Assembly (NCBI GenBank): GCA_964582645.1
Contig: CAZOTB010000007.1
Span: forward strand, 7,940-71,939
Source: an uncultured Verrucomicrobiota bacterium
GTDB lineage: Bacteria > Verrucomicrobiota > Verrucomicrobiia > Palsa-1439 > CAZOTB01
Length of the DNA stretch: 64,000 nucleotides
Direction: 5' to 3'
Shown: piece by piece, positions 2,603 to 62,139 of the stretch
Layout: each line of letters starts with the position of its first letter
Numbering within the stretch: the stretch's first letter is position 1
Position numbers and translations under genes: made by a program
The notes under the pieces: model-generated
Databases searched by the model: none
The model's input: only the letters and a program-made list of their open reading frames with translations
What the model was told of the DNA's origin: nothing

Positions 2603-2605
2603 AGG

Positions 2606-2694: not shown

Positions 2695-2706
2695 GAACCC
2701 CCGCCC

Positions 2707-8297: not shown

Positions 8298-8330
8298 GGG
8301 GCAGGCGCGTTTGCCTGCCCTTTTTCTTTT
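8298..8330 (+). terminator. Rho-independent terminator after the PhyH gene
   Basis: GGGCAGGC-GCGTTT-GCCTGCCC stem followed by TTTTTCTTTT. Confidence 0.8.
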
Positions 8331-8388
8331 TCTCCTGCGTCAGTTTCGAGTTGCGGTCTGTTCGTCCGACGACTATTCTTTGGTGGTC

Positions 8389-28570: not shown

Positions 28571-28614
28571 GGTAGATGCGCACAGCCAGACGGTGTGATG
28601 CGGGAGTGCTTTGT

Positions 28615-38470: not shown

Positions 38471-38562
38471 CATCGCAAACCTTGGCATCACCTTCTTGGT
38501 GTTCATGCTGCTGTTGTGGGCGTGGGAAGAATTCACGAAGCGACGGAAATGAGTGCCTGGCA

Positions 38563-39720: not shown

Positions 39721-39859
39721 CCATGGATTGGCGATGGGGGTATTTCCTGACTCGTCACCGGCACACCTCGGGGCCTGTCGGAGTGTCGGGGCGGTTGGGG
39801 GATCCCCGTTGCCGAATCGGGATTCCCCCCGAGCACATCCTCGCAGCAGGAAGGGAATT

Positions 39860-41251: not shown

Positions 41252-41332
41252 AATGCTACTTAGTGCTTTTGGTGACCAGGGCGAGACACCACGAATGCAA
41301 CCAATGATGGGTTTTTGTTGTCCTTAGGAGAC

Positions 41333-44300
41333 ATGAGAGTGCGCACACGAACGCGGTACGGCGAGCAGTCAAAGTTGGCGGCAAGGAGGCTGGAACTGGA
41401 GGCTCTCGAATCCAGGATTTGTCCCTCCACGCTGAATTTCGGCGCCGTCGTCGTTACGCCCAGCGACCCGCTCACCCTCGGCGGCAATAAACTCATTGAA
41501 CTCGCCTCGGGCAAGGCCATCGTCTATGTCACCGAAACCGGCATCGGCGATCCGAACCGGCTCGACGCCGATGACATCGTCGGCATCTCCATCAGCAAGG
41601 GCACCAATCTCACCAGCAACGTGGACATCCACGGCGACATCGTCACCAACCTCAACAAGAACGGCACCCTCAGCGGCGAGAACCGCGACGGCTCCGTCCT
41701 GGTCGCCAAGGCAACCATCCCCGGATTGACGATCAACGGTTCCGTGGATGGCCAAATCCTGGCCACGGGTAACATTGGCGGCCAGGCCCGAATCCTCACC
41801 GAGGAAAGCGGCCTGCTCGACGCCGAGTTTCACATCACCATCACCGGCAGCGCCAACGTCATCGCCAACGGCACCGCTGCGGGCGGACGCGATATTTTTG
41901 CCAACGTCAATGCCATCGTCGCCGGCGTGAACATCGGGCCGGTCACGCTCGAAGCCTTCGAGCAGACCAAAGGCGGACCCAGCATCGCCGGCATTGAAAT
42001 CCAGGCTGCCGAAAGCCTGACACTGATCCAAGCCGGCGACGGCGGACCCGCCGGACGCGGCGGCCAGGTGTTTGACATCCTCATCCAGGGCGCCGGCTCC
42101 CCCTACGCCATTATCGCGGGCGACGGCGGCAGCGCCACCAAACCCGGCGCAGGCGGTTCGATCTTCAATATCATCCAGACCGACGGCAGCGTGAATGGCG
42201 CGATTCTCTACCGCGCCGGCTCCGGCGGCGACGGCTTCACCAAGTCCGGCGGCGCCGGCGGCAGCATTGACACTCTCTCGCTGAACGGCAGTGGCCAGTA
42301 CGCCCTTCTCGCTGGCGAAGGGGGCGAAGGCGGCTCCGATGAGTTCGTTGTCAGCAAGGCTGATGGCGGCATGGGCGGAAACATCCGCGCCATCCGCCTC
42401 GAGAACGGCACCGGCTACACCCTGATCGCGGGCAACGGTGGCGATGGCGACCGCCACGGCGGCCAGGGCGGCTCTGTCTCGCTGTCCAACAACCAGGGCA
42501 ACATTCCCTCGTTGTTCCAGCCCACCTCCGTCGTCAACGCCGACTTTGACAAGGATGGCGACCTCGACTTGCTCGTCCTCAGCGCCACGTCCGACAACTT
42601 CACGATTTACTTCAACGACGGCGACGGCAACTTCGTCCCCCGCGGCATCTTCTCCACCGGGCTCAATCCCCAGCGGGCCGCCATTCTCGACATTGACGGG
42701 GATGACAACCTCGACCTTTTCATCACCAACAAGGACGATGACACCGTGGGCGTCCATCTCGGCAACGGGGATGGCACCTTCGACACGCCTGTCTTTCTCG
42801 ACACCGGCGTTGCGCCCATCGGTGTCGCTCTCGCCCAGGTCAATTCGTTCGGCGATAACTTGTTCGACCTCCTCGTCGTCAACTCCTTCGACCGCACCAT
42901 CAGCATCTTCTTCGGCACGGGTGGCGGTCAGTTCAATCTCAATGGCATCACCACGCTCGACATCGCGACCCTGGGCGATCCGAACGTGCTCCTTGCCACC
43001 GACCTGAACAACGACGGAGTTGCCGACATCGCTGTGGCCAACCCCGACACGCTCAACGCCGACGTGGACAGCGTCTATGTGTTCGTCGGCAACGGGGTGT
43101 TCCTGGGCGGCGACGCCACCTTCAGTGGCCCCACCAATTTCCTGGTCGGCGACCTGCCATCCGCGCTCGCCAGTGGTCTTCTCAACGGAGACGCCCGTCC
43201 GGATCTCGTGACCGCGAACGAAGGCAGCGACAACATCAGCATTCTCTTCGGCAACCCGGCGGTCGTATTCCCCGAGATCGGCTACCAATCCGCCGTCAAC
43301 ATCACCGTCGGCAATGCCCCGAGTGACGTCGGCATCGTCAACCTCAATGGCGGACTGTCCGACCTCGTCGTCGCCAACTCCAGCGACAACACCATCTCCG
43401 TGCTCCTCAACCAGGGCGGTGGCACCTTCGCGACGCCTACCTCGTGGAGCGTCGGTGCCGAGCCGGTTTCGTTGACCACCGGCGATTTCAACGGAGACGG
43501 CAACCAGGATGTGGTCACTGCCAACGCGGGCTCGTTCAACCTGAGCCTTCTGTTCGGCAACGGCGACGGCACCTTCGAGGTCGCCGGCCAGGACACCGCC
43601 GGCGCGATCCTCCAGGCGGGTAGCGGCGGGGACGGCCGCACCGGCAACGGCGGCAATGGCGGAAATCTCGGACTTGCGCCCAACAAGCCCCAGCCAGAAA
43701 TTCAATCGCCCGATGTTGAAATCTCCGCGCTTGGTGGCGCCCTCATGGTCGCTCGCGCCGGCGACGGCGGCGATGGATTCATCAACGGCGGCAAAGGTGG
43801 CACCATCTCCTCCGTAACCCTGCTTGCGGCCGGCAATGTTCTCATCCAGGCCGGCGACGGCGGCCAGGGCCAGACCGGCCAGGGCGGCGACGGCGGACTT
43901 CTCGGGCGCGGTGCACCTTCGTTTGACGTGGCGGTGACCACCGGCGGCGGGAACGCCACGATTCACACCGGTAGCGGTGGCGATGGCGCCACGGCCGGCG
44001 GTAACGGTGGACACCTCACCAACACGCAAGTGGGCAGTGACGGCGACATGGAAGTTGCCACCGGCAGTGGTGGCGACGCTACCGTCTCCGGTCGAGGTGG
44101 AGAATCCGGCAATATCAACAACTCCGAAATCACCTCCGCCGGCCAGACCCTGATCACCACCGGCAAGGGCGGCGACAGCATAGGACAGTCTGGCAGGAAC
44201 GGTGGTTCGCTCCTCAATTCCACCCTGATCATTTCGGGCAGCACGGCCGAGGAGGTGGACGTGCTGATCACCCTCGGCGACGGCGGCAGCGGCACCACCG

Positions 44301-45712
44301 GCGGGGTGGGCGGACAATTTCGCCGCGACGTGATCGAACTAACGCCCACGGGCTTCGAGATGACGGTGCAGATCGAAACCGGCAGCGGCGGCAATGGCAT
44401 CACCAGCGGCGGTGCGGGCGGCGAACTCGAGTTCATCGAACTGACCTCGACCAGCGAAGAGGACAGCTCGCTTACCAACCTCTACGTGGATCTCGGCGCG
44501 GGCGGCGACGCCACCTCAGGAGCCGGCGGCGATGGCGGCTCGCTTTCCGGCCTGCATGTCAGCGGCGTCAACGGCGACCTCGAAATCAACAACGTCACCG
44601 GCGGCAATCATGGCCGGGGCGGCAACGGCCTCTCCGGTGGACGGGGCGGCAGCGTTTCCACCGTGGACCAGATTCCACCCGACGCGACCGAGGGCGGCGA
44701 CGGCGAAATCATCGTCAGCATCGGTGGCACCTTGACCGTGCGCAGTGGCGACGGCGGCAGTGCTACCAGCGGCAACGGCGGACGGGCCGGCGACGTCAGC
44801 GCCATCAAGGGCGAGTTCCAGGGCGTCGTGGACCATGCCGACATCCCCGACACGTCCGGCCTGCGGCTGTTGGCGGGCGCGGGCGGCGCCAGCACTTCCG
44901 GCGCGGGCGGCGCGGGCGGCACCGTGAACAACATTGATGTCGCCAGCCTCGAGACCGAAATCTCCTACGTGGCGGGAGATGGCGGCTCCGGCTCGACCGC
45001 CGGAGGCGCGGGAGGCAATCTCATCCGCCTGACCGGGAATTCGTCCGAGGCGCTGCTCTTCCAGGCCGGCAACGGCGGCAACGCGACCGGCCTCGGCGGG
45101 TTTGGCGGCGCCGGCGGAAACGTGGACGACATTTTCCAGGCCGCCAATCCCGGCCAGTTGATCCGCCAGATCGTGGCGGGCAACGGCGGCGACGCGCTGG
45201 CCCTCGGCGGCATCGGTGGCAACGGCGGCTCGATCAACAAGGTGAACGTCCTGGGCGACATCGGCGATTTTACGTTGACCTATGGCTACAACTCGATGGG
45301 CGGTTTGATCGCAGGCGCCGGTGGCATCGGCCAGACCGCAGACGGCACCAACGGCAGCATCACCAACGTCACGGCCGGTCGCATCGCGGCCATCGTCGCG
45401 GGCACGGCGGTCGGTCCCGTGCCGGTGGCGTTCCTCGACAAGATCACCGCCAACGCCATTGGCGCCAACACCGACCCCAACGATCCGGGCGAGTTTGTGT
45501 TCCCCGCGTTCGACTTCATTGATTTGAACGACGACGGTCTGTACACGCTCGGCGCCGACCCCGACTCCGACCCCGCAGAGACGCCGATTGACGGGTTGAT
45601 TCTGGCGGATGTGATCGGCTCGATCAATCTGCCGCAGGGCGTCCTGCCACTGTTCACGTACGAAGTCAGCAATCCACCTCCGATTGGAAACATTGACCCA
45701 CATCCCGTGTAG
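41333..45712 (+). CDS. Large extracellular protein: LEPR-XLL/Planc_extracel motif, Gly-rich GDGG/GGxGG repeats, central FG-GAP block
   Basis: AGGAG RBS. RRLELEALESRICPS, many AGDGG.G..GG.GG units, and repeated DFDKDGDLDL / DIDGDDNLDL / DLNNDGVADI / DFNGDGNQDV. Confidence 0.85.
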   Translation: MRVRTRTRYGEQSKLAARRLELEALESRICPSTLNFGAVVVTPSDPLTLGGNKLIELASGKAIVYVTETGIGDPNRLDADDIVGISISKGTNLTSNVDIHGDIVTNLNKNGTLSGENRDGSVLVAKATIPGLTINGSVDGQILATGNIGGQARILTEESGLLDAEFHITITGSANVIANGTAAGGRDIFANVNAIVAGVNIGPVTLEAFEQTKGGPSIAGIEIQAAESLTLIQAGDGGPAGRGGQVFDILIQGAGSPYAIIAGDGGSATKPGAGGSIFNIIQTDGSVNGAILYRAGSGGDGFTKSGGAGGSIDTLSLNGSGQYALLAGEGGEGGSDEFVVSKADGGMGGNIRAIRLENGTGYTLIAGNGGDGDRHGGQGGSVSLSNNQGNIPSLFQPTSVVNADFDKDGDLDLLVLSATSDNFTIYFNDGDGNFVPRGIFSTGLNPQRAAILDIDGDDNLDLFITNKDDDTVGVHLGNGDGTFDTPVFLDTGVAPIGVALAQVNSFGDNLFDLLVVNSFDRTISIFFGTGGGQFNLNGITTLDIATLGDPNVLLATDLNNDGVADIAVANPDTLNADVDSVYVFVGNGVFLGGDATFSGPTNFLVGDLPSALASGLLNGDARPDLVTANEGSDNISILFGNPAVVFPEIGYQSAVNITVGNAPSDVGIVNLNGGLSDLVVANSSDNTISVLLNQGGGTFATPTSWSVGAEPVSLTTGDFNGDGNQDVVTANAGSFNLSLLFGNGDGTFEVAGQDTAGAILQAGSGGDGRTGNGGNGGNLGLAPNKPQPEIQSPDVEISALGGALMVARAGDGGDGFINGGKGGTISSVTLLAAGNVLIQAGDGGQGQTGQGGDGGLLGRGAPSFDVAVTTGGGNATIHTGSGGDGATAGGNGGHLTNTQVGSDGDMEVATGSGGDATVSGRGGESGNINNSEITSAGQTLITTGKGGDSIGQSGRNGGSLLNSTLIISGSTAEEVDVLITLGDGGSGTTGGVGGQFRRDVIELTPTGFEMTVQIETGSGGNGITSGGAGGELEFIELTSTSEEDSSLTNLYVDLGAGGDATSGAGGDGGSLSGLHVSGVNGDLEINNVTGGNHGRGGNGLSGGRGGSVSTVDQIPPDATEGGDGEIIVSIGGTLTVRSGDGGSATSGNGGRAGDVSAIKGEFQGVVDHADIPDTSGLRLLAGAGGASTSGAGGAGGTVNNIDVASLETEISYVAGDGGSGSTAGGAGGNLIRLTGNSSEALLFQAGNGGNATGLGGFGGAGGNVDDIFQAANPGQLIRQIVAGNGGDALALGGIGGNGGSINKVNVLGDIGDFTLTYGYNSMGGLIAGAGGIGQTADGTNGSITNVTAGRIAAIVAGTAVGPVPVAFLDKITANAIGANTDPNDPGEFVFPAFDFIDLNDDGLYTLGADPDSDPAETPIDGLILADVIGSINLPQGVLPLFTYEVSNPPPIGNIDPHPV

Positions 45713-45715
45713 AGC

Positions 45716-48700
45716 ATGACGATCCGACCGACATTGATCGCGTTGAGCCTACTCGCAATCCTCTGCGCCAGCCTCGATGCGGCCACCCCCATCTCGCAGC
45801 GCGCGATGAGTTTTGCGGTCACGCCTCCGATTCGCGATCTGCCCGCGCACGAAGGAACGAGGAGCAACTTCATTGTCCCGCTCGGTGTGCCCGGCATCTC
45901 GGCGCCCAGCGCGCAGGAAGTCGTGGCCAGCGCGGTGGCGTTGGCCCAGTCCCCGCACGATCCCGTGGTTCAGAGCACGATGCCCACGCCTCTGACGCCG
46001 GTGCCCAACGTGACTTTTGAGGGATTGAGCTCCAGCGACAACCTGGACGTATTCGGCGGCACCGGTGCGCCTCCCGACACCGTCGGGGACGTCGGACCCG
46101 ACCACTACGTGCAGATGGTGAACACGCTCTTCCGGGTGTTCGACAAGAACACCGGTTTCCCGCTGACACCTCCCACGGCGTTGAGTTCTTTGTATTCGTC
46201 GCTGCCCGGCGCGTGCGCCGACACCGACGATGGCGACCCGATTGTGCTGTACGATCCTCTGGCCGACCGCTGGGTTCTGACTCAGTTCGCGGGTGTGTTC
46301 AGCGGCCCGCCGTTCTTTCAAACCATCGCGGTCTCCCAGACGGGCGATCCGACGGGCGCGTACTTTGTGTATTGCTTCCAGATGCCGAACAGCAAGTTTA
46401 ACGACTACCCGAAATTCGGCGTGTGGCCCGATGCCTACTACATGACCGACAATCAGTTCGCCAGCATCTTTGGCGGGTTCGCCGGCGCGGGTGCGTTTGC
46501 GTTCGACCGCGCCAAGATGCTCGTGGGCGATCCGAGCGCCAGCTTCATCTATTTCGACCTCGAGGATGTGGACCCGAACATCGGGGGAATGCTTCCCTCC
46601 GACCTGGACGGTCCTCCCCCGCCCGACGGCACGCCGAACTACTTCATGTATTTCATCGCCACCGAGCGCGGCGACTCGCTGGATGGGCTGCGGATATTCG
46701 AGTTTGTGCCGAACTTCACCACGCCGGCGTCGTCCACCTTCACGGAACGAGCGGACAGTCCGGTGGCCGTGGCCGCGTTCGACCCTGGTGTGCCCGATGT
46801 GCCGCAGCCGCCGGGTGACGGAACCGCTCTCGATTCCATTCCCGATCGGCTGATGTTCCGGTTGCAGTATCGCAATTTCAGTTCGCACGAGTCGCTGGTC
46901 GTCTGTCACACCGTGGACGCCAACGGCAGCGGCCAGGCTGGTGTACGCTACTATGAACTCCGGCGTCCGCTCCCCGGCGGCGATTTCATCGTCAACGAAC
47001 AGGCCACGTTCGCACCCGACAGCGACGGCCGCTGGATGGGCAGCGCGGCGATGGATGCCTCGGGCAATCTGGCCGTCGGCTACAGCGTCTCGAGCGCCAC
47101 GACGCATCCGGCCATTCGATATGCCGCGCGGCTCGCGACGGATCCGGCGAACGGGTTGTTCCAGGGCGAGGCAATCCTGTTCGAGGGCTCGGGCTCGCAG
47201 ACGGACGGCTTGAACCGCTGGGGCGATTACAGCGCGATGTGCGTTGACCCCGCCGACGATTGCACGTTCTGGTTCACCAGCCAATACATCCCCGAGGACG
47301 GCTCGTTCAACTGGCACACTCGGATCGGCAGTTTCAGCCTCGGCAACTGCGAAGCAGGACCGCGGTTGAGCCTGGCGTTTGACGAAGCGATTGTCTCCGG
47401 TGGCAACGACAACGGATTCGTTGATTCGGGAGAGTGTCTCAATCTCAACATCGTCGCTGGCAACCTGAGCACGAACGAGGTCACCGGCGTCGGCGCCACG
47501 CTGACGACAAGCACTCCCGGCGTCACCATCACCCAGGGAGTGTCGGCCTACGCGGACTTTCCCGCCGAGGGTGTTTCGACCAACCTGACACCGTTCCAGT
47601 TCTGCATCAGCACCAATGTTGCGTGCGGTTCGCAGATCACCTTCTTCCTCACCCTGACCAACGCGATTGGTTCCGCCAGCGTGAACTTCATCCTCGACGT
47701 CGGCATCAGCACCAATGTCGCTGCATTTAACTTCGAGACCGGTCTCCAGGGTGTGACCATCCAGAACGACGGAAACAACCTCTGGCACTTGAGCTCCGGC
47801 CGCGGCGGTCAGCCGGGGCACAGCAAGACCAACTCGATGTATTACGGCCAGGGCGAGACCGGCAGTGGAGGTGGCAATTACAACACCGGCAGCACGAACG
47901 CCCTCGGCTTCGTCGGTTCGCCCAATCGCGGCTCCTTCACGCTGCCACCCCTCAACCTTCTGGGCGTCAACGGCACGGTGCTGATGACTTTCAATCAGTT
48001 CCTCGACCGCGAAACCTCATCACCGAACTACGACATCGCCCGACTGGAAGCGTCCACCGATGGCGGGCAATCGTTCGTGACGGTCGGCGGGCCGTACGCC
48101 TCCACGTCGAAAGTCATCTTGTTCCGCAAGGCGCGCTTCCGCCAGGCCACCGTCAACCTCACCCCGTTCCTCAACAAGGAAGTGATCCTGCGCTTCAGCT
48201 TTGACACCGTGGACAATCAGTCGAATGCGTTCGAAGGCTGGTACGTGGACGACATCGTCATCAAGGCGTTCGCTTGCGCGCTCGATCTGAGCGGCGCAGG
48301 GCAGATTGTATCGCAGGGAACGACCGTCGGCGACAGCACCGGCGTGTTCGCGACCTTCAACGGAATCAACGGTGCGAATCTCCTGACGCAATCGGTGCTG
48401 ACCAACGAACCGCACGGCGACTTCCGATCGTTCGCCGTGGACACCGCAGGCAACGGCATCCAGTCCGTCGCGGTCGCTGCCACGAACAGCGCCGGGCAGG
48501 TCCGTTTCGAGGTGCGCGACGGGAGCACGGGGGCACTGTTGAGTTCGAACGCACTCGCGTTCCTCACCTCGCCGTATCAATCCACCGCCGCCGATGTTTC
48601 GGGCTCCGCAGGCGACGAATTGCTATTTGTTGCGCCCGGTGGTGGAGGCACGGTGTTAAGCGTGGTGGACCCCGCCACCGGCGATGCGACCATGCCGGCC

Positions 48701-49549: not shown

Positions 49550-49552
49550 ACC

Positions 49553-52500: not shown

Positions 52501-55500
52501 AGGCAACCCGGATAACTTCGACCTGGGCATTGGCAACATCAACGCGGTGGCCGCCAACGTCGCTGGCTCGGTGGCGATCGAGCAGAGTTTCTTCGGAACC
52601 GGCAGTCGTGACAACATCATCCACATCGGCGCCATCACCACCATCGGCGATGTTCAATCTTCGACATTCGGACTCGGACCCCAGGGCGTGATTACGGCCG
52701 GGGACATTGGGAATCTCACTGGCGGCGCTGGGATCAACGTCCAGGGCAGCATCATTGACTCCATCATCGCCGGCACCGGATCCCTCGCCGTCAACGGCGG
52801 CATCACCATCGCCGAACTCGAGGAGCAGCGCGGGTTTGCCGAAGGCAGCATTTTCATTGGCTTCGCCGGGGTCGGCAACATTTTCGTCGAAGGCATCAAC
52901 GAGGCCGGTGCCGGTGTGACCGACAGCCAGTTCGCCACCTTTGTGGACATCCCGGGCGGTGGCAGCATCGGCAGCATCACCATCAAGACAGGCTCGGTGG
53001 AAAGCTCGTTCTTTGGCGCTGGCGAAAACCTCGCGCTCACCGGTGGCATCACCATTTTTGGCAACACCGTGCACAAGGATTTCGGCCTGCTCGACAGCAC
53101 CCTGTTCGCGCACGACGGTGATATCGGCTCGATCACCATCGGCCCGTCCGGGCTCGCCAAGAACCAGGTCGGCACCGAGATCAGCGGCAGCACCATCGCC
53201 GGCGTCAACATCGCCATCGGCATGGACGGAGACATCGCGCGTGCCATCACCATCCACGGCAACAACACCGGCGACGCCATGAACCGCGCACCCGGCGAGG
53301 CGGGGTTGTCCATTTTCGATTCCATGATCATTGCCGCGGATCCAAACAATACCGCCGGCATCGGCTCGATCGGCCACATCCTCATCGGTCAGAGCCCGGG
53401 CGACAACGCCGGCGGCGGCATCGCGGAAAGCCACATTCTCGCAAATCTCAACCTCGGCGATGTCAAACTCCGGATCAACATCACCGATGCCGACGAGGAT
53501 ATTTCCGGTATTCGCGACAGCGAGTTCCGCGGACAATCTGCCGTCACCACACCGGACCTCAAGACCGCAGGAGAGGAGTTTGGCAGCATCGGCGAAATCG
53601 TGGTACGACTCACGGGACTTCCCTCGACCCAGGACGTCATCACCGGCAGCACGTTCTCCGCAGGCCCGAATCTGACAGGCGCCTCGATGCTCTCGCTGGG
53701 CAACGTTACCCTGACAACCGATGGGATCGGTTCGATTGTGACCGACTCCACCTTCCGCACCAGCGGCCCGATGGGTGCCCTGTTCTTGCGCGCCGCCTCC
53801 ACCTCGACCGACGCTGTCGTCAACACCACCTTCAGCGCGCTCGGTGTCATCGGCTCCGACGTCGGCAACAACATCAGCGTCCGCGGGAACGTGGTCGGCA
53901 GCCGGTTCCTGGCCGGCTACGACATCGGCGCTGACCTGATTCAGGGCAACGAATTGAATCCGGCCAGCCCGCAGGCAGTGGCGCTGGAGTTTGTGGTTGA
54001 TGCCGGCGGCGAGGCGGCAACCGCCGAACCGGTCTTTGTCAACCGCATCAGCGTGGACGGCAACCTGATCGAGTCCGACATCATCGTGGGCATTGATCCC
54101 GGCTACACCGGCGGAGGCACGTTCGACGACACCTGGGGTAACACCGCGCCGCTCATGCTCGACGCGATGGGAAATCCGTTGGACCCGCTCGGCACCGACG
54201 ACATCGCCTCGTCCGAAGATGGTCGCATCGGCACCATCCAGGTGCAGGGCGGCATCTACACGCAGGGAACCGATCTGAAGGAACACTCGATCGCAGCGGG
54301 CTTCATCGGCGCGTTCCAGCAGCCCAACAACGTCACCCACAAGAGCGATCTCCCCGGTTTCCTCGACAACGGCGGTGGCTCGCTCGACGTGCGGATCCAA
54401 GGCGAGCCCAGCGGCGCGCCTGTATTCCTCACCAGCCGCGACTTCGCCGGCCGCGAAGTGGATTTCAATCAGGACGGAGACAACGACCTGATCATGCTCG
54501 ATTCCCGCACCAACCAGTTGAAGGTGTTTTACGGCAACGGCATCGGCGCATTCGAGTCCCCGGTCGTCTTCGGCGTCGGCAACGCGCCCGTCTGGGCCGT
54601 CATTGGCAACTTCAACGGCGACGTGTTGCTCGACGACAATGGCGTGCCCATCCTCGATGGAAGCGGTAACGTCATCCCCGCGCTCGACATCGTCGTGCTC
54701 AACTCACTCACCGACGGCCGCGCGGGCGTCACCAATTTCAACACCATAGACATCTTCTTCGCCGATCCCGTGGGCGGGACCTTCTCCGAGGACGGACATC
54801 AGATCGTGAGCCTCGGCTTCGGCTCACGCACATTGACCTCGATCGCCGCCTCCGATTTCGTGGATGTCACCAGCTCAAATTCACCGGTCGGCGACGGCTT
54901 CCTCGACCTGGTCATCACCAACGCGACCGACAATGTCGTGCGCTTGTTGCGGAATACCGACGCCAACAACGATGGTGTGGCCGATGGCATTTTCCTCCCC
55001 ACTGCCGCCAACAACTTCGCCGTCGGTGCCGGCCCGACCGGCATTTCTGTCACGCCGCCCCTGAGCGTCATCGCTCCGGAAACGATCGTCGGCGGATCAC
55101 CCGATGCCCATATTGACGCCGGAGACGATCTCGACGAACTGCCCGGCAACGCCCCCGACGCGGTAGTGGCCAACGCCACCGACAACACCATCTCGGTCCT
55201 GTTCGGCAGCAACACCGGCGACGGCCAGTTCCAGCTCATCACCACGGTGGCTGTCGGCGCCACGCCGCTGCAGACCGTGCTGGCCGACGTGGACAATGAC
55301 AACGACATTGACATCCTGGTCGTCAACTTCGGCTCCGACAGCGTCAGCGTCCTCCTGAACAACGGCCTCGGCGGGTTCGGCGCTTCGGTCACCCTCGCTG
55401 TCGGCGCCGCTCCGCGCGGGATTGTCGTCGGCGACTTCAACGGCGACAACCTGATTGATTTTGCCACCGCCGATTCCGGTGCAGACACCGTGTCCGTGGT

Positions 55501-55693
55501 GTTGAACACGGACGGCATCTTCACCGGCGCCGTGGCGACCGCCGTGACATTGACCGGCTCGCCGTTGGCAATCACCAGCGCGGACTACAACAACGACGGC
55601 TTCGTGGACCTGGCGGTGACCAACGCCGATCTGGCGCAGGCCCCGGTGGTCCTCGAAAACGACGGCACCGGAACATTCACCGTGGTCGCATAA
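49553..55693 (+). CDS. Giant extracellular beta-strand-repeat protein with LEPR-XLL motif and C-terminal FG-GAP repeats
   Basis: FAVEPLEERVLPS, F.DADGDKV, many G.IG.IT repeats, two FLAGYDIG blocks, DFNQDGDNDL, DVDNDNDIDI, DFNGDNLIDF, DYNNDGFVDL. Confidence 0.88.
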   Translation: MAFSKRSRVGMSYLKRLQSARPTTRGSFAVEPLEERVLPSGITLLPTKKVSFLDADGDKVTIKAKGDLFQISLLGGATDNADVDTITILPGKTGVYDPNASLTVQVKAGKFSGGTTEIAHLTMLDQAGAERLGAITLNNALVDELTLPGGLTKLTANNTDFGNVVIAGALGSMVIGNHDLTGTISALSIGTITNIGPLTGGDIAGNVISTGAITKIITNRITGSVTAGGTIGTLATAEDLDGAVEATGGTVNAVIGRNLDGSLVVHNGNLNLGTLTIARVDGDVTGNVQVDGTLISGLLPLLSINANGNLVSGASISSSGHLIAKANEIQTDLLAINGDVTFAMKTGGLTTAVTAGDDVFGDGASGAIVIRGGNLSGQINAGGDISAITLNPNTLGITGSLTAGGNIGNITTHFFNGASLIAGFGTSAGSIGNLNVDHSGSNGGVSTAILDSSFTAATSIGNITVKQTGGDTAIDQSVFQVSNGSLGTITAETTGTGSAIRGTTPFPAFSASTTIGTISAKAVSSAAIASAVFQAGGNFGNITATSGAGDGFDASSFVSIGGSLGTITGSSVSGVAIDGSTFQASGSIGVISGTSTTGEAINASTFRADTGTISNITGRVSGAASSADAISDSNFTSGSTIGDILGDAKLGSGIANTKVSAEGNITSITGKTTNADTTVNEDGIQDSVFRTNASILKITGSTGVNDGELALATESEAMDGSVFSALVNILAPSGATIIATGDIQFSTFLAGYDIGGNLALDGLAGLGSDDILGDAMTPVQIGDITSTSDIVGSFFASGVGTDNNIIGDNIVFASDDFLNALNSSIGNITVAGVIAGEAGFIPLDELFRIGPRSAFSSDHIGLITADAISMSDSDSSAVASVGISTKFNTISSGVIDGIIVHTSSRAHAIGDSALVTPGSSLGFIEATNLSPTAETAISNSRFGAWILTSSFFGDADHLFAVNAQTPNSTDAVPISGSMFLFDEGNPDNFDLGIGNINAVAANVAGSVAIEQSFFGTGSRDNIIHIGAITTIGDVQSSTFGLGPQGVITAGDIGNLTGGAGINVQGSIIDSIIAGTGSLAVNGGITIAELEEQRGFAEGSIFIGFAGVGNIFVEGINEAGAGVTDSQFATFVDIPGGGSIGSITIKTGSVESSFFGAGENLALTGGITIFGNTVHKDFGLLDSTLFAHDGDIGSITIGPSGLAKNQVGTEISGSTIAGVNIAIGMDGDIARAITIHGNNTGDAMNRAPGEAGLSIFDSMIIAADPNNTAGIGSIGHILIGQSPGDNAGGGIAESHILANLNLGDVKLRINITDADEDISGIRDSEFRGQSAVTTPDLKTAGEEFGSIGEIVVRLTGLPSTQDVITGSTFSAGPNLTGASMLSLGNVTLTTDGIGSIVTDSTFRTSGPMGALFLRAASTSTDAVVNTTFSALGVIGSDVGNNISVRGNVVGSRFLAGYDIGADLIQGNELNPASPQAVALEFVVDAGGEAATAEPVFVNRISVDGNLIESDIIVGIDPGYTGGGTFDDTWGNTAPLMLDAMGNPLDPLGTDDIASSEDGRIGTIQVQGGIYTQGTDLKEHSIAAGFIGAFQQPNNVTHKSDLPGFLDNGGGSLDVRIQGEPSGAPVFLTSRDFAGREVDFNQDGDNDLIMLDSRTNQLKVFYGNGIGAFESPVVFGVGNAPVWAVIGNFNGDVLLDDNGVPILDGSGNVIPALDIVVLNSLTDGRAGVTNFNTIDIFFADPVGGTFSEDGHQIVSLGFGSRTLTSIAASDFVDVTSSNSPVGDGFLDLVITNATDNVVRLLRNTDANNDGVADGIFLPTAANNFAVGAGPTGISVTPPLSVIAPETIVGGSPDAHIDAGDDLDELPGNAPDAVVANATDNTISVLFGSNTGDGQFQLITTVAVGATPLQTVLADVDNDNDIDILVVNFGSDSVSVLLNNGLGGFGASVTLAVGAAPRGIVVGDFNGDNLIDFATADSGADTVSVVLNTDGIFTGAVATAVTLTGSPLAITSADYNNDGFVDLAVTNADLAQAPVVLENDGTGTFTVVA

Positions 55694-55725
55694 GTACGGG
55701 AGATTTCAGAGTTGGAGATCGTTAC

Positions 55726-58700
55726 ATGAAAGAAGCAGCCACCATCGAACCTCTTCGCGCCTCCGCTGCGCGGCAGCTTCATCGGCTCTGGAACATCGAG
55801 GCGCTCGAAGAACGCCTCCTGCTCAGCGGCGCCGATGTGTTTGGTGTTCGCAAGGTCAAGTTCGTCGAAGCCGACGGTGACAAGGTCAAGTTGTCCATCA
55901 GCGGCAAGGACAACATGGACGTGGTGTTCGACCGCGACCTGGCTAACCACATCGTCGGGATTGACACGATCACACTGCACGGCACAGACGCGTCTTCGCA
56001 GCTCAACTTCAGTCTCAAACCCGCCAAGGGCGGCGGGAGCGACCTGACCACGTTTGTCGGCTCGATTCTCAGCGGCAACGCCAGTCAGTCGTTGCGCGGC
56101 ATCAACGCCACCGGCGCCGCGCTCTCGAGCGTGGATCTTACCGGCTCGCTGACAGGCAATCTCACCACCAATCGGGACCTCGGCGATGTCACAGTTGCCG
56201 GCACCCTCAACAGCGTGGTCATCCAGAACGCGCGCGATCTGACCGGCGATCTGACCGCGGCCAACATCGGCAAGGTCACCGCCACGGGCGGTGATCTCCT
56301 CGGCAGCATTACAGCGACAAACGGCATCACCAGCGTCCAGGCACGGAACATGGCCGGCAACCTCACTGCCGGAACGACGCTGGGCAGACTCACCCTGTCC
56401 GGCGATCTCAGCGGCGATGTGGCCTTTGGACGAGATACTCTGGAGCTGTTGATCAGCGGGAGTGTCACATCTTCCGCTTCCATCACGGGTAATGCCGGCA
56501 GCGGGGTCGCGAACATCAACGCCGGCAGTTTCGCACGGCTCGGCGTCATCGGCAATTTCGCCGGTACCATCATGACTGATGGCAGTGTCGGACTTGGCGT
56601 CGGGGGCGCTCTGCTCGACACGGCCACCGTCCGTGCCGGTACGGATAACGACGTCGCCGGCAATCTTGAAGTCAAGGCGCTCAGCATCGCGGCGGATCTG
56701 GCTGCATCCGGCAATGTCTCGTTCGCGATGACGAACGGCGGCTTCTCGGGAACCATCACCGCGGGACAGGATGTGTTCGGCAACGGCGTCAACAGCGGCA
56801 TTGTCATCCGTGGAGGTGATTTCACCGGCGCGATCTTCGCCGGTCTCAATCCCAACAACAACATGGTGCAACCCGGCGGCGACGTGGCGGCGATGACATT
56901 CCTGCCCACCGCAGCGGGGTTCAATGGGACGATCGTCGCCAGCGGCACCGCCAACGCCATCACGGCGGGATTCTTTGGGAGCAACACCTCGATTTCCGCC
57001 GCGACCATCGGCGATCTCTTCGCCAACCGCAGCATCGCGGGAGACGCCATCGCCGCAGGCGCGTTGTTCACCGCCACGACCGGCTCCATCGGCACCGTCA
57101 CCGCCAAGGCCGTCAGCGGCGTCGGTATCGCGGGCACGTTTGTGGCAGCGCAGAACATCGGCAACATCAACGCCACCAGTACCGGCATCGGCAGCGGTCA
57201 TCACGCCATCAGCGAGGCCAGCTTCACCGCCACGGCGGGCACAATCGGCACGATCGTCGCCGGCGCCAAGGCCGGTAGCGGCATCAACGATTCTTCCTTC
57301 ACCGCCGAAACCGGCATTGGCAACATCGCCGGCTCGTCCCAGACCGGGCACGGCTTCCGCGCGTCCATGGATGGAGCAAACATCTTTGCCGTTCTCGACG
57401 GCAGCCTCGGCGATATCAGCGGAGTCAGCATCCTGGGCGACGGTATCCACGGCAGTACGTTCACAGCTTCGGAGAATATTGGCAACGTCAACGGCTCCAG
57501 CGCGAGCGGGAGCGGCATCGGCGATCCGACCGGTGCAGTGGGCACGTTCTTCAACGCCGGCGGCAGCATCTCCTCGCTCAAAGGCACCGCCACGGGCGGC
57601 GGCGCCGGCGCCGGTGGGGATGGCATGGTCCACGTCACCGCCGCTGCGGGCGAGAACGAAGGCGGGCTTGGCTTCGGCTCGATCCAGGGGTCGAGTCAGT
57701 TCGGCAGCGGGATCGTGGGCAGCCGCTTCTCCGCCCAGGGCAGCATCGCCTTGATCGTCGGCACGACCAACAACACCAACCCGACCGTGGACGAGGACGG
57801 CATCAACACCACGGTGTTCCGCACCGCGAGCGACATCCAGGAAGTCACCGCCACCACCGGGGTGACCGGCGGAGCGGGCGTCGGTTCGGCAATCGAAGAG
57901 AGCCTGTTCAGTGCGGCGGGCAACATCGCCACGCCCGAGGAGCCGGTGATGGCGCCGACCCAGGTCAAAGCACCCGGCCCATTGGTGGATTCGATCCGCA
58001 TTGATAACGACATCCCGCTGGGCACGCTGGGCCATTGGGACGTGGACGTGAACACGGGCGGCGAGTCGAACTCGGCGCAGTTGACCGCGTCGCGGCTGGC
58101 CAGTGGCGACATCGTCACCGAGGACGTGTTGTTCGACTACTACAGCTACGTGGACACTGGCAACAACGGCGGCGGATTCCAGTTGAGCAGCGGCGCCGAC
58201 CCGACACAGGTGGGCAGCGATCCGGACAAGGTGCAAAGCACGGGGTCGTTCACGGGCGCCAACGGCAACACGATCAACTACACCGTCACCAGCTCCATCG
58301 CGAACGGCGATTCGGTCATGTACAGCACGTTCACGTTCACGGCGCAAAGCGGCACCCTCGGCGTGTTCCGCTTCATGCAGTACCTGGATGAGGACATCGA
58401 GGGCGTCAGCGACGATGTGCTCTACGTCACAGGTTCGGCTGCCAACAACGACCTTCAGCTTTTTACCTTCGACAACGACGAGGTGTACGGCGTCAGCCAC
58501 TCCGGCTCGCTCTCCACCGCACAGGGTTTGGTCAACGCCGCCTTCGCCGGCTGGGCCGCCGACGAATACAACGACATGAAGCCCCAGATCACAGGCTCGG
58601 GGCAGAGCGCCTCATTGGGCGGTGTGATTGATCTGACCGATCTGCCGGCGTTTACGCATCCGACTCTCGGCGCGGTCAACGGCCCTGCGGACATTGTCTC

Positions 58701-61700
58701 CGTGCTGGCGTGGGACGTGGATCCGAATGCCACCACCGCGACGATCATCACCACGTTGGGCGGTGTGCCGACCCCGCCGACTCCCGAACCGCCCCCGATC
58801 CCGACGGGCGACTGCGAGGGCCACGGTTCCGATCTGCCGATCGTCATCAGCGTCACGGGCGACATTCGGGATTCCCAGTTCCTCGCCGGCTACGATATCG
58901 GCGCCGACATGTCATTCGATGGCACGTCCAACGATGCCTCCGAGTTTGCCGCCCTCCAGCCCAGCGTGCTGGGCAGCATTCGGGTCACCGGGGACTGGAT
59001 CAACTCCTTCGCGGCGTCCGGTATTTCGAGCGCCGATGGTCAGCTCGGCAACGGCGACGACACGTTGAGCGCGCCCGGCAGCGCCATCGGAAACATTCTC
59101 CTCACCAGCAATATCGCCGGCGACGTCAACAATCCCGGCAGCCCGCCTCTCCGCAACTTCCAGAGCGACTCCATCGGCACGCTGGCTGCAAACGCGATCG
59201 GCATCGATCCCAATTCCGGCTCGGCGGCGGCCACCATCGGGGTGTTCACCAACTTCGCCAACGGCACCGTCGGCAGCATCGGCGACATCATTGCTGAAAC
59301 GCGGACGCAGGCCCAGGCGATTGGCGATGGGAGTGAGTTCCACGCCGGCACCTCGATCGCCTGCATCAGCGCCGTCAACACCAACACCAGCCTCAACCTC
59401 CTCAACGCCATCGGCAGCGCCACCTTCGAAGCCGGCACCTCGATTGGGAATATCACCGCCCAGGTGGACAACGGGCCTTTCGCTGCCGCCATTCAATTTG
59501 CGAGCTTCATCGCCCATGACAATGCGGCCGACACCGAGTTGGCCATCGGCAACATCGAAGCCTCGAACGATTTCTCGGATTTGGCGGCCATTGACGGCGT
59601 GCTGTTCGATGCCTCGAGCCCGACCGTCGTGGGCACTCCGCTGCACATCGGCACCATCCGAACAGACGGCGACATCTCGGACAGCTCCTTCTTGGCGACG
59701 GGCAACATTGCCAACGGCACCATTTTCGAAGGCGAGATTTGCGTCACCACCACCAGTCCGGGGCCGCTGCAGATCACGGAGACCACGGACGAAAATGCGC
59801 TCGTCAACCGGCTCTTTGGGGGCATGATCCCCGCGGGCATCACCATTGACGATATCACCCTGGTTGCGCCTGGCGACCCGGACATCGCCGGCAGTTCGTC
59901 TGTGGGGTTGTACGAGGGATTCCCGAGCCTGCCGCTCGGGTCCATCGCCCAGTTACCCGATGGCATCCTCCTGACAAGCGGCCTGGCGAGGAACGCACTG
60001 GGCCCAAACAATACCGGAAGCGAGACCACCGACCTGGACGCGGCAGGCGATTCGGATCTGGACGGTCTGGACCCCGGCGACGACACCACCGACGCCTCCT
60101 CGCTGTCGATCACCTTCACCACCGATGGATCGGTTGCGTCGTTCAGCGCGCTGTTCGTGTTTGCCTCGGAGGAGTTTGCCGAGTTCGTGAACTCGCCGTT
60201 CAACGACATCTTCGCCGTGTTCCTCGATGGCGTGAACATCTCGAACGATCCGAACGGCAACATCCTCAACGTCAACAACAACTTCTTCCTGCTCAACAAC
60301 ACCGACGAGAATCCGCCCACCGATTTCAACGGGGATGACATTACCGGCACGACGTTGGTGGACATCACAGACATCCAATACGACGGACTGACGCCCGTAT
60401 TGCGCGTGTCCACACCCGGCACCCTGACTCCCGGCCAGCACACGTTGAAGTTCGCCGTTGCGGACGTATCCGATCACCTGTGGGACAGCGGCGTGTTCAT
60501 CTCGGCGCTGTGTCCTTCGAGCGAGCCGGGGGGCGGCGGCACGAACCTGCCCATGCCGTCGCAAATCGGCATCGAGGTGGAAGGCGATATCGGCAACTCC
60601 CAATTCATTGCGGATTTCGACAACAACGGCACGGGTTCGATCGCCGCGATCGGCGGCATTCACGTGCTGGTGCGCGAGGGCATGGCCGGATCCATGACGG
60701 GCGGTGGGCATATGGGGATCTTGTTCAGGGACGGCGACGTGTTTTCCGCGGGCGGCAACGACCCCGTCAGCGGCCTCGCGATTGGAAACATCCAGGTGGA
60801 TGGGAGCGACATCTTTGACGCCGCAGGCAATCCAATCCTCTGGGCTGTGGACGGCGCCACCTTCGTGGCCGACACCATCCCGGATCTCAACATCGGCACC
60901 ATCACCACTACTGCCGGCAGCATCGGCACCACCAAGTCGTACATTTCCAGTTTCACTGCCACGGGCGACATTCGCGATCTGAACATTGCGTCCGGTATCA
61001 CCACGGGCAGCACGTTCCTCGCGGACAGCGATGCGGACAACGCGGGCGACATCTTCGACATCACTGCGGGCGGCATCGTGAACGCAACCGTCAGTGGCAA
61101 CAACGTGGCTGTTTCCGGCGGAATCACCGTGGTTTCCTCGATAGACATGTTCACCGTGACCGCCACCACCGGCGACATCGGCGACCTCAATGTCTCGCAG
61201 GACGAAGACAACAGCAGTGGTATTGGCGTTCATAATTCCACCTTCAGCGCCGCGGTGAACATCGGGAACATTGCAATCAAGTACACCAAGCCGCCCGCAC
61301 CGCAGGAGGATCCGGACTCGATGTTCACTCCCTTGGGAAGTACGCTGTCCGACACCCAGTTCCTCGCCGCACAAGTGGACCCCACCGGCAAGATCGGCAC
61401 TGTCACCGTTGAAAACATCATCGCGGAGAATGATTCCGAACAGATGAACGGGAACACCTTCTACGCGGGCACCGGCGGGATCGGAGACATCCTGATCCTG
61501 TCTGTGGGTCAGGGCGAGGGAATGATCGCCACCTCCTTCCGCACCACCGGCGCCAATGACGACGATCAGCACGGCGATATCGGCAACATTACCGTTGCCA
61601 CCGGCTCCGAGGATGCCGTTGTGGACAGCATCATCAGTTCGATTGGCAACATCGGAGACGGTGAAGGCAATGAGAACGGCTTCAACATTGAACTCAGCGG

Positions 61701-62139
61701 CGGCGTCTTGGGGAGCATCTTTGCCGCGGGGTACGACATCGGCGCAGACCTGATGATCGGCACCGCCGACGACTTGCTGGCGTCTGTGATTACTTCAATC
61801 AATAAGATCATGATCGAGGGACGTTTCATTCAGTCCAACCTGGTCGCGGGCGTCAACCCGGTGGATGGCATCTTCGGCAATTCCAATGATACACCCGCCG
61901 TGGTCGGCAGTTCGCTCGGTATCGTCAGCCTGGGAGGCGTGGTGGACCCCGAGGAAGAACCCGGCATGGGCGGCCTCATCGCGGAAAGCCCCCTCATGGA
62001 CCGCAACTACTTGATCGGGGCGGATCTGATTGGCGACTTCCTCGTCGGAGGCGAAACTCAGTTCAGCGCACTGCCAGGGTACCTCGACAACGAAGGCACG
62101 TTAAACACGGTTGACGACGTCAACGTCCGCGTGCTCTAG
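55726..62139 (+). CDS. Giant extracellular beta-strand-repeat protein with LEPR-XLL motif and an inserted choice-of-anchor-L-like domain
   Basis: GGAG RBS. WNIEALEERLLLS, FVEADGDKV, GILLTSG..FVFASEEFAEFVNSPFNDIF..YDGLTPVL..FAVADVSD..WDSGVFI (~59780-60510), and F.AGYDIG blocks. Confidence 0.88.
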   Translation: MKEAATIEPLRASAARQLHRLWNIEALEERLLLSGADVFGVRKVKFVEADGDKVKLSISGKDNMDVVFDRDLANHIVGIDTITLHGTDASSQLNFSLKPAKGGGSDLTTFVGSILSGNASQSLRGINATGAALSSVDLTGSLTGNLTTNRDLGDVTVAGTLNSVVIQNARDLTGDLTAANIGKVTATGGDLLGSITATNGITSVQARNMAGNLTAGTTLGRLTLSGDLSGDVAFGRDTLELLISGSVTSSASITGNAGSGVANINAGSFARLGVIGNFAGTIMTDGSVGLGVGGALLDTATVRAGTDNDVAGNLEVKALSIAADLAASGNVSFAMTNGGFSGTITAGQDVFGNGVNSGIVIRGGDFTGAIFAGLNPNNNMVQPGGDVAAMTFLPTAAGFNGTIVASGTANAITAGFFGSNTSISAATIGDLFANRSIAGDAIAAGALFTATTGSIGTVTAKAVSGVGIAGTFVAAQNIGNINATSTGIGSGHHAISEASFTATAGTIGTIVAGAKAGSGINDSSFTAETGIGNIAGSSQTGHGFRASMDGANIFAVLDGSLGDISGVSILGDGIHGSTFTASENIGNVNGSSASGSGIGDPTGAVGTFFNAGGSISSLKGTATGGGAGAGGDGMVHVTAAAGENEGGLGFGSIQGSSQFGSGIVGSRFSAQGSIALIVGTTNNTNPTVDEDGINTTVFRTASDIQEVTATTGVTGGAGVGSAIEESLFSAAGNIATPEEPVMAPTQVKAPGPLVDSIRIDNDIPLGTLGHWDVDVNTGGESNSAQLTASRLASGDIVTEDVLFDYYSYVDTGNNGGGFQLSSGADPTQVGSDPDKVQSTGSFTGANGNTINYTVTSSIANGDSVMYSTFTFTAQSGTLGVFRFMQYLDEDIEGVSDDVLYVTGSAANNDLQLFTFDNDEVYGVSHSGSLSTAQGLVNAAFAGWAADEYNDMKPQITGSGQSASLGGVIDLTDLPAFTHPTLGAVNGPADIVSVLAWDVDPNATTATIITTLGGVPTPPTPEPPPIPTGDCEGHGSDLPIVISVTGDIRDSQFLAGYDIGADMSFDGTSNDASEFAALQPSVLGSIRVTGDWINSFAASGISSADGQLGNGDDTLSAPGSAIGNILLTSNIAGDVNNPGSPPLRNFQSDSIGTLAANAIGIDPNSGSAAATIGVFTNFANGTVGSIGDIIAETRTQAQAIGDGSEFHAGTSIACISAVNTNTSLNLLNAIGSATFEAGTSIGNITAQVDNGPFAAAIQFASFIAHDNAADTELAIGNIEASNDFSDLAAIDGVLFDASSPTVVGTPLHIGTIRTDGDISDSSFLATGNIANGTIFEGEICVTTTSPGPLQITETTDENALVNRLFGGMIPAGITIDDITLVAPGDPDIAGSSSVGLYEGFPSLPLGSIAQLPDGILLTSGLARNALGPNNTGSETTDLDAAGDSDLDGLDPGDDTTDASSLSITFTTDGSVASFSALFVFASEEFAEFVNSPFNDIFAVFLDGVNISNDPNGNILNVNNNFFLLNNTDENPPTDFNGDDITGTTLVDITDIQYDGLTPVLRVSTPGTLTPGQHTLKFAVADVSDHLWDSGVFISALCPSSEPGGGGTNLPMPSQIGIEVEGDIGNSQFIADFDNNGTGSIAAIGGIHVLVREGMAGSMTGGGHMGILFRDGDVFSAGGNDPVSGLAIGNIQVDGSDIFDAAGNPILWAVDGATFVADTIPDLNIGTITTTAGSIGTTKSYISSFTATGDIRDLNIASGITTGSTFLADSDADNAGDIFDITAGGIVNATVSGNNVAVSGGITVVSSIDMFTVTATTGDIGDLNVSQDEDNSSGIGVHNSTFSAAVNIGNIAIKYTKPPAPQEDPDSMFTPLGSTLSDTQFLAAQVDPTGKIGTVTVENIIAENDSEQMNGNTFYAGTGGIGDILILSVGQGEGMIATSFRTTGANDDDQHGDIGNITVATGSEDAVVDSIISSIGNIGDGEGNENGFNIELSGGVLGSIFAAGYDIGADLMIGTADDLLASVITSINKIMIEGRFIQSNLVAGVNPVDGIFGNSNDTPAVVGSSLGIVSLGGVVDPEEEPGMGGLIAESPLMDRNYLIGADLIGDFLVGGETQFSALPGYLDNEGTLNTVDDVNVRVL

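Follow-up and report, generated by a model that had tools for sequence, protein, structure and literature searches.

Giant proteins with an N-terminal LEPR-XLL motif share a conserved operon with a Sec-dependent partner in a Verrucomicrobiota genome

We examined 64,000 nucleotides of contig CAZOTB010000007.1 from an uncultured freshwater Verrucomicrobiota bacterium (hereafter the window, meaning this whole stretch), in which an operon at 41333-62139 encodes four very large proteins, G1–G4. Three of them (G1, G3, and G4) begin with a basic tail and a short charged motif of the LEPR-XLL class, and the remaining one, G2, with a classical Sec signal peptide. The motif and its link to giant proteins of the Planctomycetes–Verrucomicrobia–Chlamydiae (PVC) bacteria are already known, and the operon is a further instance of this class, because the motif has been in Pfam since its 2004 description. 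What is new is a sharp contrast in cysteine content within one operon, together with the linkage of the protein family to an uncharacterized gene cluster that encodes an M50 protease–adaptor fusion and a TolC-family channel. Tentatively, and at somewhat less than even confidence, we favor a reading in which G1, G3, and G4 leave the cell through a leader-recognizing tripartite conduit encoded in trans, with G2 exported by Sec.

A Four-Gene Operon Conserved as a Unit

The four open reading frames are co-directional on the + strand and separated by gaps of 3, 3, and 32 nt. Their GC content at third codon positions (0.80–0.84) resembles that of other real genes of the window, and this, with the coordinates, bears out the compact four-gene block that an earlier note, made from the letters of this DNA, had described. 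The genes and their N-terminal elements are:

41333-45712, + strand: G1, ATG start, 1459 aa, motif-bearing giant protein (a TTG at 41315 gives 1465 aa)
41396-41428, + strand: G1 motif LEALESRICPS (aa 22-32), after MRVRTRTRYGEQSKLAARRLE; no hidden Markov model (HMM) match
45716-49549, + strand: G2, 1277 aa, 11 Cys, Sec-dependent partner
45716-45784, + strand: G2 classical signal peptide MTIRPTLIALSLLAILCASLDAA, conserved in the L006 orthologue
49553-55693, + strand: G3, GTG start (alternative ATG at 49583), 2046 aa, motif-bearing giant and G4 paralogue
49640-49672, + strand: G3 motif VEPLEERVLPS (aa 30-40), recognized by pattern and orthologues
55726-62139, + strand: G4, 2137 aa, motif-bearing giant, identical to representative P0001
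55795-55827, + strand: G4 motif IEALEERLLLS (aa 24-34), the sole one of the three to reach the NF012209 cut-off

The whole block recurs on a 31-kb metagenomic contig (L002), in the order purA (− strand), R1, R2, R3, R4, and an M20 peptidase gene. R1–R4 share 46, 58, 55, and 54% identity with G1–G4 (R3 is representative P0002; R4 is P0003, with its 54% extending over aa 11-1341). In a third copy, the G2 orthologue (P0045) is 81% identical and the block stands behind a YegS-like kinase gene. As the flanks are unlike among the three genomes, the four genes are a conserved unit, a chromosomal operon. Within it, G3 and G4 are paralogues (34% identity over ~740 aa).

Beyond these copies, relatives are few. 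An exhaustive HMMER search with a G3/G4 N-terminal profile over 1.84 billion cluster representatives found only 39. This search was effective where a word index, ill-suited to such low-complexity proteins, was not: the word-indexed search found nothing with the N-terminal 760 aa of G4 and 7 fragments only with a profile of the module that follows the motif. Among genome contigs, the G3/G4 profile found no relative, and a profile of the verrucomicrobial subgroup found one, in a Terrimicrobiaceae (Verrucomicrobiota) metagenome-assembled genome. By exact-sequence look-up, neither PurA nor G4 of the window was found in the records.

An N-Terminal Motif without a Hydrophobic Core

The N-termini of G1, G3, and G4 consist of a basic tail followed by φE.LE.R..[LP]S (φ, hydrophobic residue). 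A strict form of this pattern, [LVIMF]E.[LVIM][EDQ].R.[LVICM].[SAT], has exactly three matches when all 64 kb are translated in six frames—all of them 22–30 residues into these three proteins—against a chance expectation of ~0.1 (200 amino-acid shuffles; mean 0.12, maximum 2). The motif is kept in the orthologues, as LEPLEKRSLPA in R1 (where it sits upstream of the miscalled start), LEPLETRVLPS in R3, VERLEDRILPS in L006, and VETLEDRVLLS in R4, and its E, L, E, R, and S make up five of the seven invariant columns in 30 aligned N-termini, so that no other part of the N-terminus is as conserved.

First described by Studholme, Fuerst and Bateman (2004) and used since (PMC8567305), the motif is modeled in Pfam as PF07595 (Planc_extracel) and in NCBIfam as NF012209 (LEPR-XLL; LEPR-8K), and by NCBIfam naming and one published case (PMC10868602) the class also occurs in gamma-proteobacteria. 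The class assignment in the earlier note is supported, with scores on both sides of the cut-off. On G4, NF012209 scores 15.9 bits over the whole protein and 21.2 bits over the first 60 aa alone (cut-off 17); relatives P0005, R4, and P0015 score 19.3–23.1 bits. Unlike typical members, G1 and G3 end their motif in a divergent R..PS and are recognized by pattern and orthology only, with no NF012209 match at E ≤ 10. PF07595 (gathering cut-off 25.5 bits) matches none of G1, G3, and G4, and reaches 19.3 bits (E 8.9e-4), below cut-off, on the orthologue R4. By eye and by pattern, G1 (LELEALESRICP) and G3 (VEPLEERVLP) fit the Tuwongella variant LxLExLExRxxP of the published consensus (RRLxxExLExRxLLA; PMC8567305), and their R..P form resembles the Gemmataceae type. 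In other respects the likeness to the class is close: a basic tail, φE.LE.R.LL[SA] within the first ~45 residues, no hydrophobic core or canonical signal peptide, and very large, repetitive carriers (first motif residue 22 of 1459 in G1, 30 of 2046 in G3, and 24 of 2137 in G4). The operon departs from the class in joining motif proteins to a Sec-dependent partner in a conserved arrangement.

Specifically, the hydrophobic region (h-region) that follows the basic n-region of a Sec or Tat signal is absent from G1, G3, and G4 and present in G2. Over the first 80 aa, the maximum 15-residue Kyte–Doolittle mean is 0.8–1.25 in the motif proteins vs. 2.49 in G2 (MTIRPTLIALSLLAILCASLDAA). Across 37 N-termini, the tail has a median of 32 residues with 8 Lys/Arg vs. 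1 Asp/Glu, and the maximum 12-residue hydropathy has a median of 1.07, compared with 2.4–2.9 for the G2 and R2 signal peptides. A Sec signal hidden upstream, which the earlier note had named among the cases that would overturn it, is ruled out by tight in-frame stops in three genomes. These lie 40, 30, and 112 codons before the motif in G1, G3, and G4 (with nothing hydrophobic in the intervening codons), 8 codons before the ATG of R4, and 11 codons before the L006 orthologue of G3, and stops 8–40 codons away leave no room for such a signal. The division of the operon that the note had drawn, into three coreless motif proteins and one classical Sec protein, therefore stands.

Other known signals were considered and set aside. 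A lipobox at the G1 Cys (RICPS) was rejected because that Cys is missing in R1, and a prepilin-type signal because both G|F-T-L-I-E and a hydrophobic stretch are wanting. The double-glycine leader is an analogy only, its positional match being partial: φ at −12, E at −8, and φ at −4 fit the consensus, and L at −7 does not.

The motif heads unrelated downstream domains, as G3 and G4 continue into a module with a DADGD signature that G1 lacks. In view also of the varied carriers in Tuwongella, the motif is a portable linear element. In an AlphaFold2 model of G4, tail and motif are unstructured (predicted local distance difference test, pLDDT, ~50) and the following module is confidently all-beta (pLDDT 72–88). 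In G3 and G4 this N-module spans ~70 residues with the signature F.DADGDKV, and a fold search against the PDB returned no match for it.

A further conserved element lies 15–25 residues before the ExLExR motif (window 49553-49606 and relatives). In the verrucomicrobial-type subgroup it reads MK....YFGNRF (P0005, P0007, P0013, P0014, P0024-P0030, P0032, P0034, P0037) and in G3 and its orthologues ..YL[KNE]R[LV]Q (VAFSKRSRVGMSYLKRLQ). The common pattern, Y-φ-x-x-R-φ, is not clear in G4; its recurrence suggests that the leader may be bipartite.

Cysteine Avoidance, Acidity, and Location

Motif proteins and their Sec-dependent partner differ markedly in composition. Across the motif-bearing family, 38,089 residues include just 9 Cys (0.024%): G1 has 1 (net charge −107; 20% Gly), G3 has 0 (net charge −140), G4 has 4 (net charge −177), and R1, R3, and R4 have none. 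By contrast, the Sec-dependent G2 and R2 have 11 and 10 (about 0.8%; 0.86% in G2), and the remaining window genes average 1.7%. Acidity and a lack of cysteine are typical of type I secretion system (T1SS) substrates, and such composition marks substrates of T1SS and type V secretion systems (T5SS) that need to remain unfolded and do not acquire their fold in the periplasm. By this analogy the near-zero Cys content and strong acidity point to transport in an unfolded state that would bypass the periplasm, with which the composition fits. G1, G3, and G4 thus show the general traits of T1SS substrates (no Sec signal, acidic, few or no Cys). RTX nonapeptides (GGxGxDxUx) had no match in any of G1–G4. 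The C-termini of G4, R4, and many relatives consist of an acidic residue and then alternating hydrophobics (DDVNVRVL, ADVNIRVL, NDVVVRHM, EDVRVISF).

An extracellular location of the motif proteins is indicated indirectly by their FG-GAP/VCBS repeats, a choice-of-anchor L domain, their acidity and low Cys content, and the fractionation of other motif carriers in Tuwongella. In Tuwongella immobilis, 52 genes encode the variant motif, which is found on 8 of the 10 longest proteins; 20 of the 52 products were detected, 8 of those 20 solely in the fraction soluble in sodium dodecyl sulfate (SDS), and the authors consider motif proteins likely to be exposed at the surface and the motif to be a presumed export signal without an assigned route (PMC8567305). 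Full-text literature searches found no paper assigning an export route to the motif, and a paper on polymorphic toxins (PMC3482391) has nothing on it; a presumed signal and no route is still what the literature gives, as the earlier note had said. Co-assembly of the four proteins, into the surface layer, adhesin, or filament that the earlier note had inferred, is suggested only by the conservation of the operon and the FG-GAP theme common to its products.

A Candidate Exporter Cluster beside Relatives

By Pfam and NCBIfam matches, neither the operon nor its flanks encode a transporter, TpsB, or autotransporter barrel, in agreement with the earlier note. T5SS passenger features (a two-partner secretion, TPS, domain; a C-terminal beta-barrel; a TpsB partner) likewise have no match there. 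Secretion-related genes of the window are limited to a GspE/PilB-like and a GspF-like gene (863-3762), which lie 38 kb from the operon.

Relatives of the giants provide a lead. Immediately ahead of P0015 (1672 aa; IEALEPRLLLSG...), and read from the same strand, lies a cluster that encodes a DUF3467 protein, a GAF protein with a HlyD-like adaptor (membrane fusion protein, MFP), an M50 protease–adaptor fusion, a short adaptor, and a TolC-family channel. In the fusion, an M50-type intramembrane HExxH protease (NF041824, 3.7e-57; YydH/LiaK-like) is joined to a HlyD-like adaptor. The predicted topologies—a soluble DUF3467 protein; a cytoplasmic GAF domain followed by one transmembrane helix and a periplasmic adaptor; about six transmembrane helices and an adaptor; a secreted adaptor; and a TolC-like protein with a signal peptide—fit an envelope-spanning assembly. 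These cluster genes are also found near P0016, 5 kb downstream of it, in surroundings that are otherwise unrelated.

When metagenomes were scanned with the M50-adaptor fusion, 15 loci came up, of which 14 carry the fusion and one (L025) a distant adaptor match only. The 13 comparable loci fall into five lineages (47–75% identity), with HExxH intact in all 13. In each of the four lineages with enough flanking DNA, the cluster has a family giant no more than 5 kb away, while other neighbors differ; the fifth lineage (L012), a 6-kb contig, is uninformative on giant linkage. In three lineages the giant ends 3.5–5 kb upstream of the cluster (P0016; a 42%-identical relative at L022; P0009-like giants at L011, L014, and L023), and at L009 the TolC-like gene is followed, after 254 nt, by the start of P0015. 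Cluster-linked giants have the N-module in common with G3 and G4 (35% identity) and a C-terminal ...D-V-x-V-R-x-φ module in common with G4. Reviews of tripartite systems make no mention of M50-adaptor fusions. The M50-adaptor/TolC cluster could be the exporter, as a hypothesis for the organism studied here, its linkage being drawn from relatives.

DUF3467 is the most conserved member of the cluster: this small, soluble protein (L009 2522-2869) is ~72% identical across lineages, vs. 41–48% for the adjoining membrane proteins, and has homologues at L004, L011-L014, L016-L019, L022, and L023.

Weighing Routes of Export

In the favored reading, G1, G3, and G4 would be made in the cytoplasm, kept unfolded, and passed out in a single step, bypassing the periplasm, by a T1SS-like conduit of the adaptor/TolC type that spans the envelope and is encoded elsewhere. 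Encoding in trans would be nothing unusual, as most T1SS are split between two loci and T1SS have been predicted in Planctomycetes (PMC4793230). Basic tail and motif would form a portable leader, recognized by the machinery and perhaps removed. G2 would cross the inner membrane via Sec and join the others outside, where the four proteins would together help to build a structure on the cell surface. As the conduit, the strongest candidate is the DUF3467/GAF-HlyD/short adaptor/M50-adaptor/TolC-like cluster beside the G3/G4 homologues. A more specific proposal, which we hold to be rather unlikely, is that the ExLExR motif is the leader of an undescribed exporter with the M50 metalloprotease–HlyD fusion as its inner-membrane core, accompanied by the GAF adaptor, a third adaptor, TolC, and DUF3467; here DUF3467 may chaperone the basic tail, the leader would be clipped, and the giants would be threaded out in one step. 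Known leader-peptide systems offer a partial likeness. The substrates of double-glycine leader systems with a C39-ABC (ATP-binding cassette) transporter also have a short, conserved, charged, amphipathic leader ending in small residues (..LLSG), and M50-type leader proteases act on ribosomally made, post-translationally modified peptides (RiPPs; the daptide HExxH protease, YydH/LiaK), as an M50 HExxH protease is found in the relatives' cluster. Unlike here, where proteins of 150–300 kDa are concerned, the substrates of those systems are peptides.

Several observations weigh against export through a leader-recognizing conduit of this kind. The conserved cluster set contains no ABC, RND (resistance-nodulation-division), or MFS (major facilitator superfamily) gene, leaving an energizer for a 200-kDa chain missing, and none of the candidate components occurs in the 64-kb window or on the relatives' operon contigs. 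Within the family the linkage is confined to a single clade, and at L003, L005, and L010, which are of the verrucomicrobial type, the cluster is missing. The giant N-termini at L011, L014, and L022 lie beyond the DNA analyzed, so that their motif is taken from homology to P0009/P0016. The present data give no sign of cleavage at the motif. Cys avoidance is known also in T5SS passengers and in repetitive proteins generally, and G1 and G3 lack the G4-type C-terminal strand. Finally, the Tuwongella carriers include trypsin-like proteases and a glucose dehydrogenase (PMC8567305), i.e., the signal is not limited to giants.

A canonical ABC-driven T1SS with a C-terminal signal is unlikely, in our judgment, though it has real points in its favor. 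In that case the N-terminal motif would serve as a late-exported retention element or anchor (LapA-type) or bind a cytoplasmic factor. The proteins are acidic and cysteine-free, and the C-termini of the G4 type are acidic and then hydrophobic. The extreme C-terminal motif of T1SS proteases resembles such an ending. A tail before a small all-beta module resembles the layout of a retention module: LapA of Pseudomonas fluorescens and MpIBP are also very large, acidic repeat proteins that are poor in cysteine and have no Sec signal, with an N-terminal tail before a small beta domain and a transporter that need not adjoin. Among LEPR-XLL proteins, a Vibrio giant of ~8000 aa has C-terminal RTX and serralysin domains (PMC10868602), and Planctomycetes have predicted T1SS (PMC4793230). 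Unlike LapA and MpIBP, however, G1–G4 have no RTX nonapeptides and no LapG-type TAAG site, and neither LapD/LapG genes nor an ABC transporter were seen with them in the window. Moreover, G1 and G3 keep the motif without the G4-type C-terminus, the N-module has no structural match to solved proteins, and in Tuwongella the motif is on many unrelated protein types, as expected of a portable N-terminal signal. The possibly undescribed pathway of the earlier note is not required by the data, which a one-step, T1SS-like conduit in trans fits equally well.

A PVC-specific machine unrelated to tripartite TolC-type systems that recognizes the N-terminal motif, the form that the dedicated pathway of the note would take, seems to us improbable. 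It would accord with the strong conservation of the motif, with the lack of any published route since 2004 in our literature searches, and with the fact that no transporter adjoins the operon in three genomes or the loci L003, L005, and L010. Yet the motif class is also gamma-proteobacterial, which argues for widely shared machinery, and the TolC/adaptor cluster is linked to family members in four lineages. Export by an atypical Sec or Tat signal (with the “RRL” of the Rhodopirellula consensus read as a twin arginine), followed by a two-step passage of the outer membrane, is very unlikely: the basic n-region before the motif, the RRL of G1, and the GspE- and GspF-like genes in the window would suit it, but there is no h-region (median 1.07 across 37 N-termini vs. 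2.4–2.9 in G2/R2), the invariant charged E, E, and R occupy its place, G3 and G4 have no twin arginine, and near-total absence of Cys argues against periplasmic folding. We give hardly any credence to the idea that the proteins stay intracellular, with the motif serving another purpose. No recognized signal peptide is present, and of the 20 motif proteins detected in Tuwongella, no more than 8 came exclusively from the envelope fraction (PMC8567305); still, the FG-GAP/VCBS repeats and choice-of-anchor L domain, the extreme acidity and Cys avoidance, the shared operon with G2, which is exported by Sec and likewise has FG-GAP repeats, and the linkage of relatives to a TolC-like cluster all speak for export.

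Domain Architecture of the Four Proteins

Outside the N-termini, the following domains were recognized:

42509-43582, + strand: G1 FG-GAP_3/FG-GAP repeats (PF13517, 1.6e-25, 6 stretches), the FG-GAP/VCBS repeats at ~aa 393-750
45980-47353, + strand: G2 beta-propeller domain of 458 aa (aa 89-546), no covering Pfam model
48650-49342, + strand: G2 C-terminal FG-GAP region
54461-55648, + strand: G3 C-terminal FG-GAP_3 repeats
55837-56055, + strand: G4 N-terminal all-beta module (aa 38-110) with the F.DADGDKV signature, common to G3 and ~30 relatives
59896-60507, + strand: G4 choice-of-anchor L domain (aa 1391-1594; NF038133, 6.1e-38)
61747-62136, + strand: G4 C-terminal module ending DDVNVRVL, also in R4 and in giants adjoining the MFP/M50/TolC cluster

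The remainder of G1, G3, and G4 consists of long glycine-rich tandem repeats (G.I.G.I.. type) that look beta-helix-like by eye. Between orthologues, a domain has been exchanged, with choice-of-anchor L in G4 (59896-60507) standing against FG-GAP/VCBS in R4 (L002 ~19980-21045). The R4 region (PF13517) resembles that of G1, and around the swap the N-terminal 1340 aa and the C-terminal module of G4 and R4 are collinear.

The G2 domain (aa 89-546) ranks with the more widespread uncharacterized domains of secreted proteins and has at least 7994 homologues at E<1e-5, with 60–66% identity, in Acidobacteriota, Verrucomicrobiota, Methylomirabilota, and others, where CarboxypepD_reg and P-domain modules are its usual partners. 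AlphaFold2 models it as a confident beta-propeller (pLDDT 89.7; predicted template modeling score, pTM, 0.90). Foldseek returned generic propeller matches (integrin-alpha, sialidase) at template modeling scores of 0.4–0.5, i.e., at fold level only. Invariant motifs in the domain are RWGDYS and DDGDP.V.YD, and conservation this strong suggests that the propeller may be an enzyme or a specific receptor.

Surrounding Genes

The 8-kb stretch from purA to the operon in the window is missing from the relative L002. Within this stretch, immediately upstream of the operon (37119-41116), are a NarX-like histidine kinase gene overlapping a receiver-domain gene without a detected DNA-binding domain, a protein with weak AhpC/TSA-like and 2-oxoglutarate-Fe(II) (2OG-Fe(II)) oxygenase matches, and a 462-aa open reading frame with weak Glyco_trans_1_2 similarity (E 0.003). 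PDB sequence searches with this 462-aa frame, G2, and G4 gave nothing useful. In this lineage, the genes at 37119-41116 may have a part in regulating or modifying the giants, and at L009, too, a 2OG-Fe(II) oxygenase adjoins the giant.

A methyltransferase of ~520 aa repeatedly adjoins family giants, both at verrucomicrobial-type loci and at loci linked to the M50 cluster; no homologue is present in the window. It was found at:

L003, 11900-13492
L005, 27-782
L011, 4378-5916
L013, 620-2194
L014, 4560-6134
L016, 143-1699
L022, 2078-4009

Domains of the protein lysine methyltransferase (PKMT) type occur in two of the seven (MethyTransf_Reg at L003 and L005, PKMT winged helix at L005), and the other five are tied to the L003/L005 genes by blast similarity only. 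In Rickettsia, enzymes of the PKMT type methylate lysines of OmpB, a surface protein, and by analogy the giants may be lysine-methylated before export.

Farther away, the genes at 863-3762 encode a GspE/PilB-type ATPase with an MshE-like N-terminal domain that binds cyclic di-GMP (NF053729, 2.6e-23) and then a GspF-like protein; they are a piece of a type IV pilus or type II secretion system (T2SS) locus, interrupted by the window edge. A protein of 566 aa (8311-10011) scores above cut-off for the TIGR02597 paralogous family and below cut-off for a choice-of-anchor D/TMEM131-like N-terminal domain; it may be another surface protein. Genes for an L-fucose isomerase and a GH95 alpha-L-fucosidase-type hydrolase (15335-17155 and 26312-28693, both − strand) suggest use of fucosylated polysaccharides, which is common among PVC bacteria.

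Significance

Proteins with this motif are the largest of planctomycete genomes and are probably a major part of the cell surface. The operon described here is a natural contrast, with three motif proteins and one Sec protein in one conserved transcription unit. By itself it leaves the export question unsolved; together with its relatives, it gives two handles on that question, a cysteine signature and a linked gene cluster. If the unlikely proposal of an undescribed exporter built around the M50-adaptor fusion were true, that exporter would do for whole proteins what leader-dependent export does for peptides, and the ~20-year question of how PVC bacteria export their largest proteins would have its answer.

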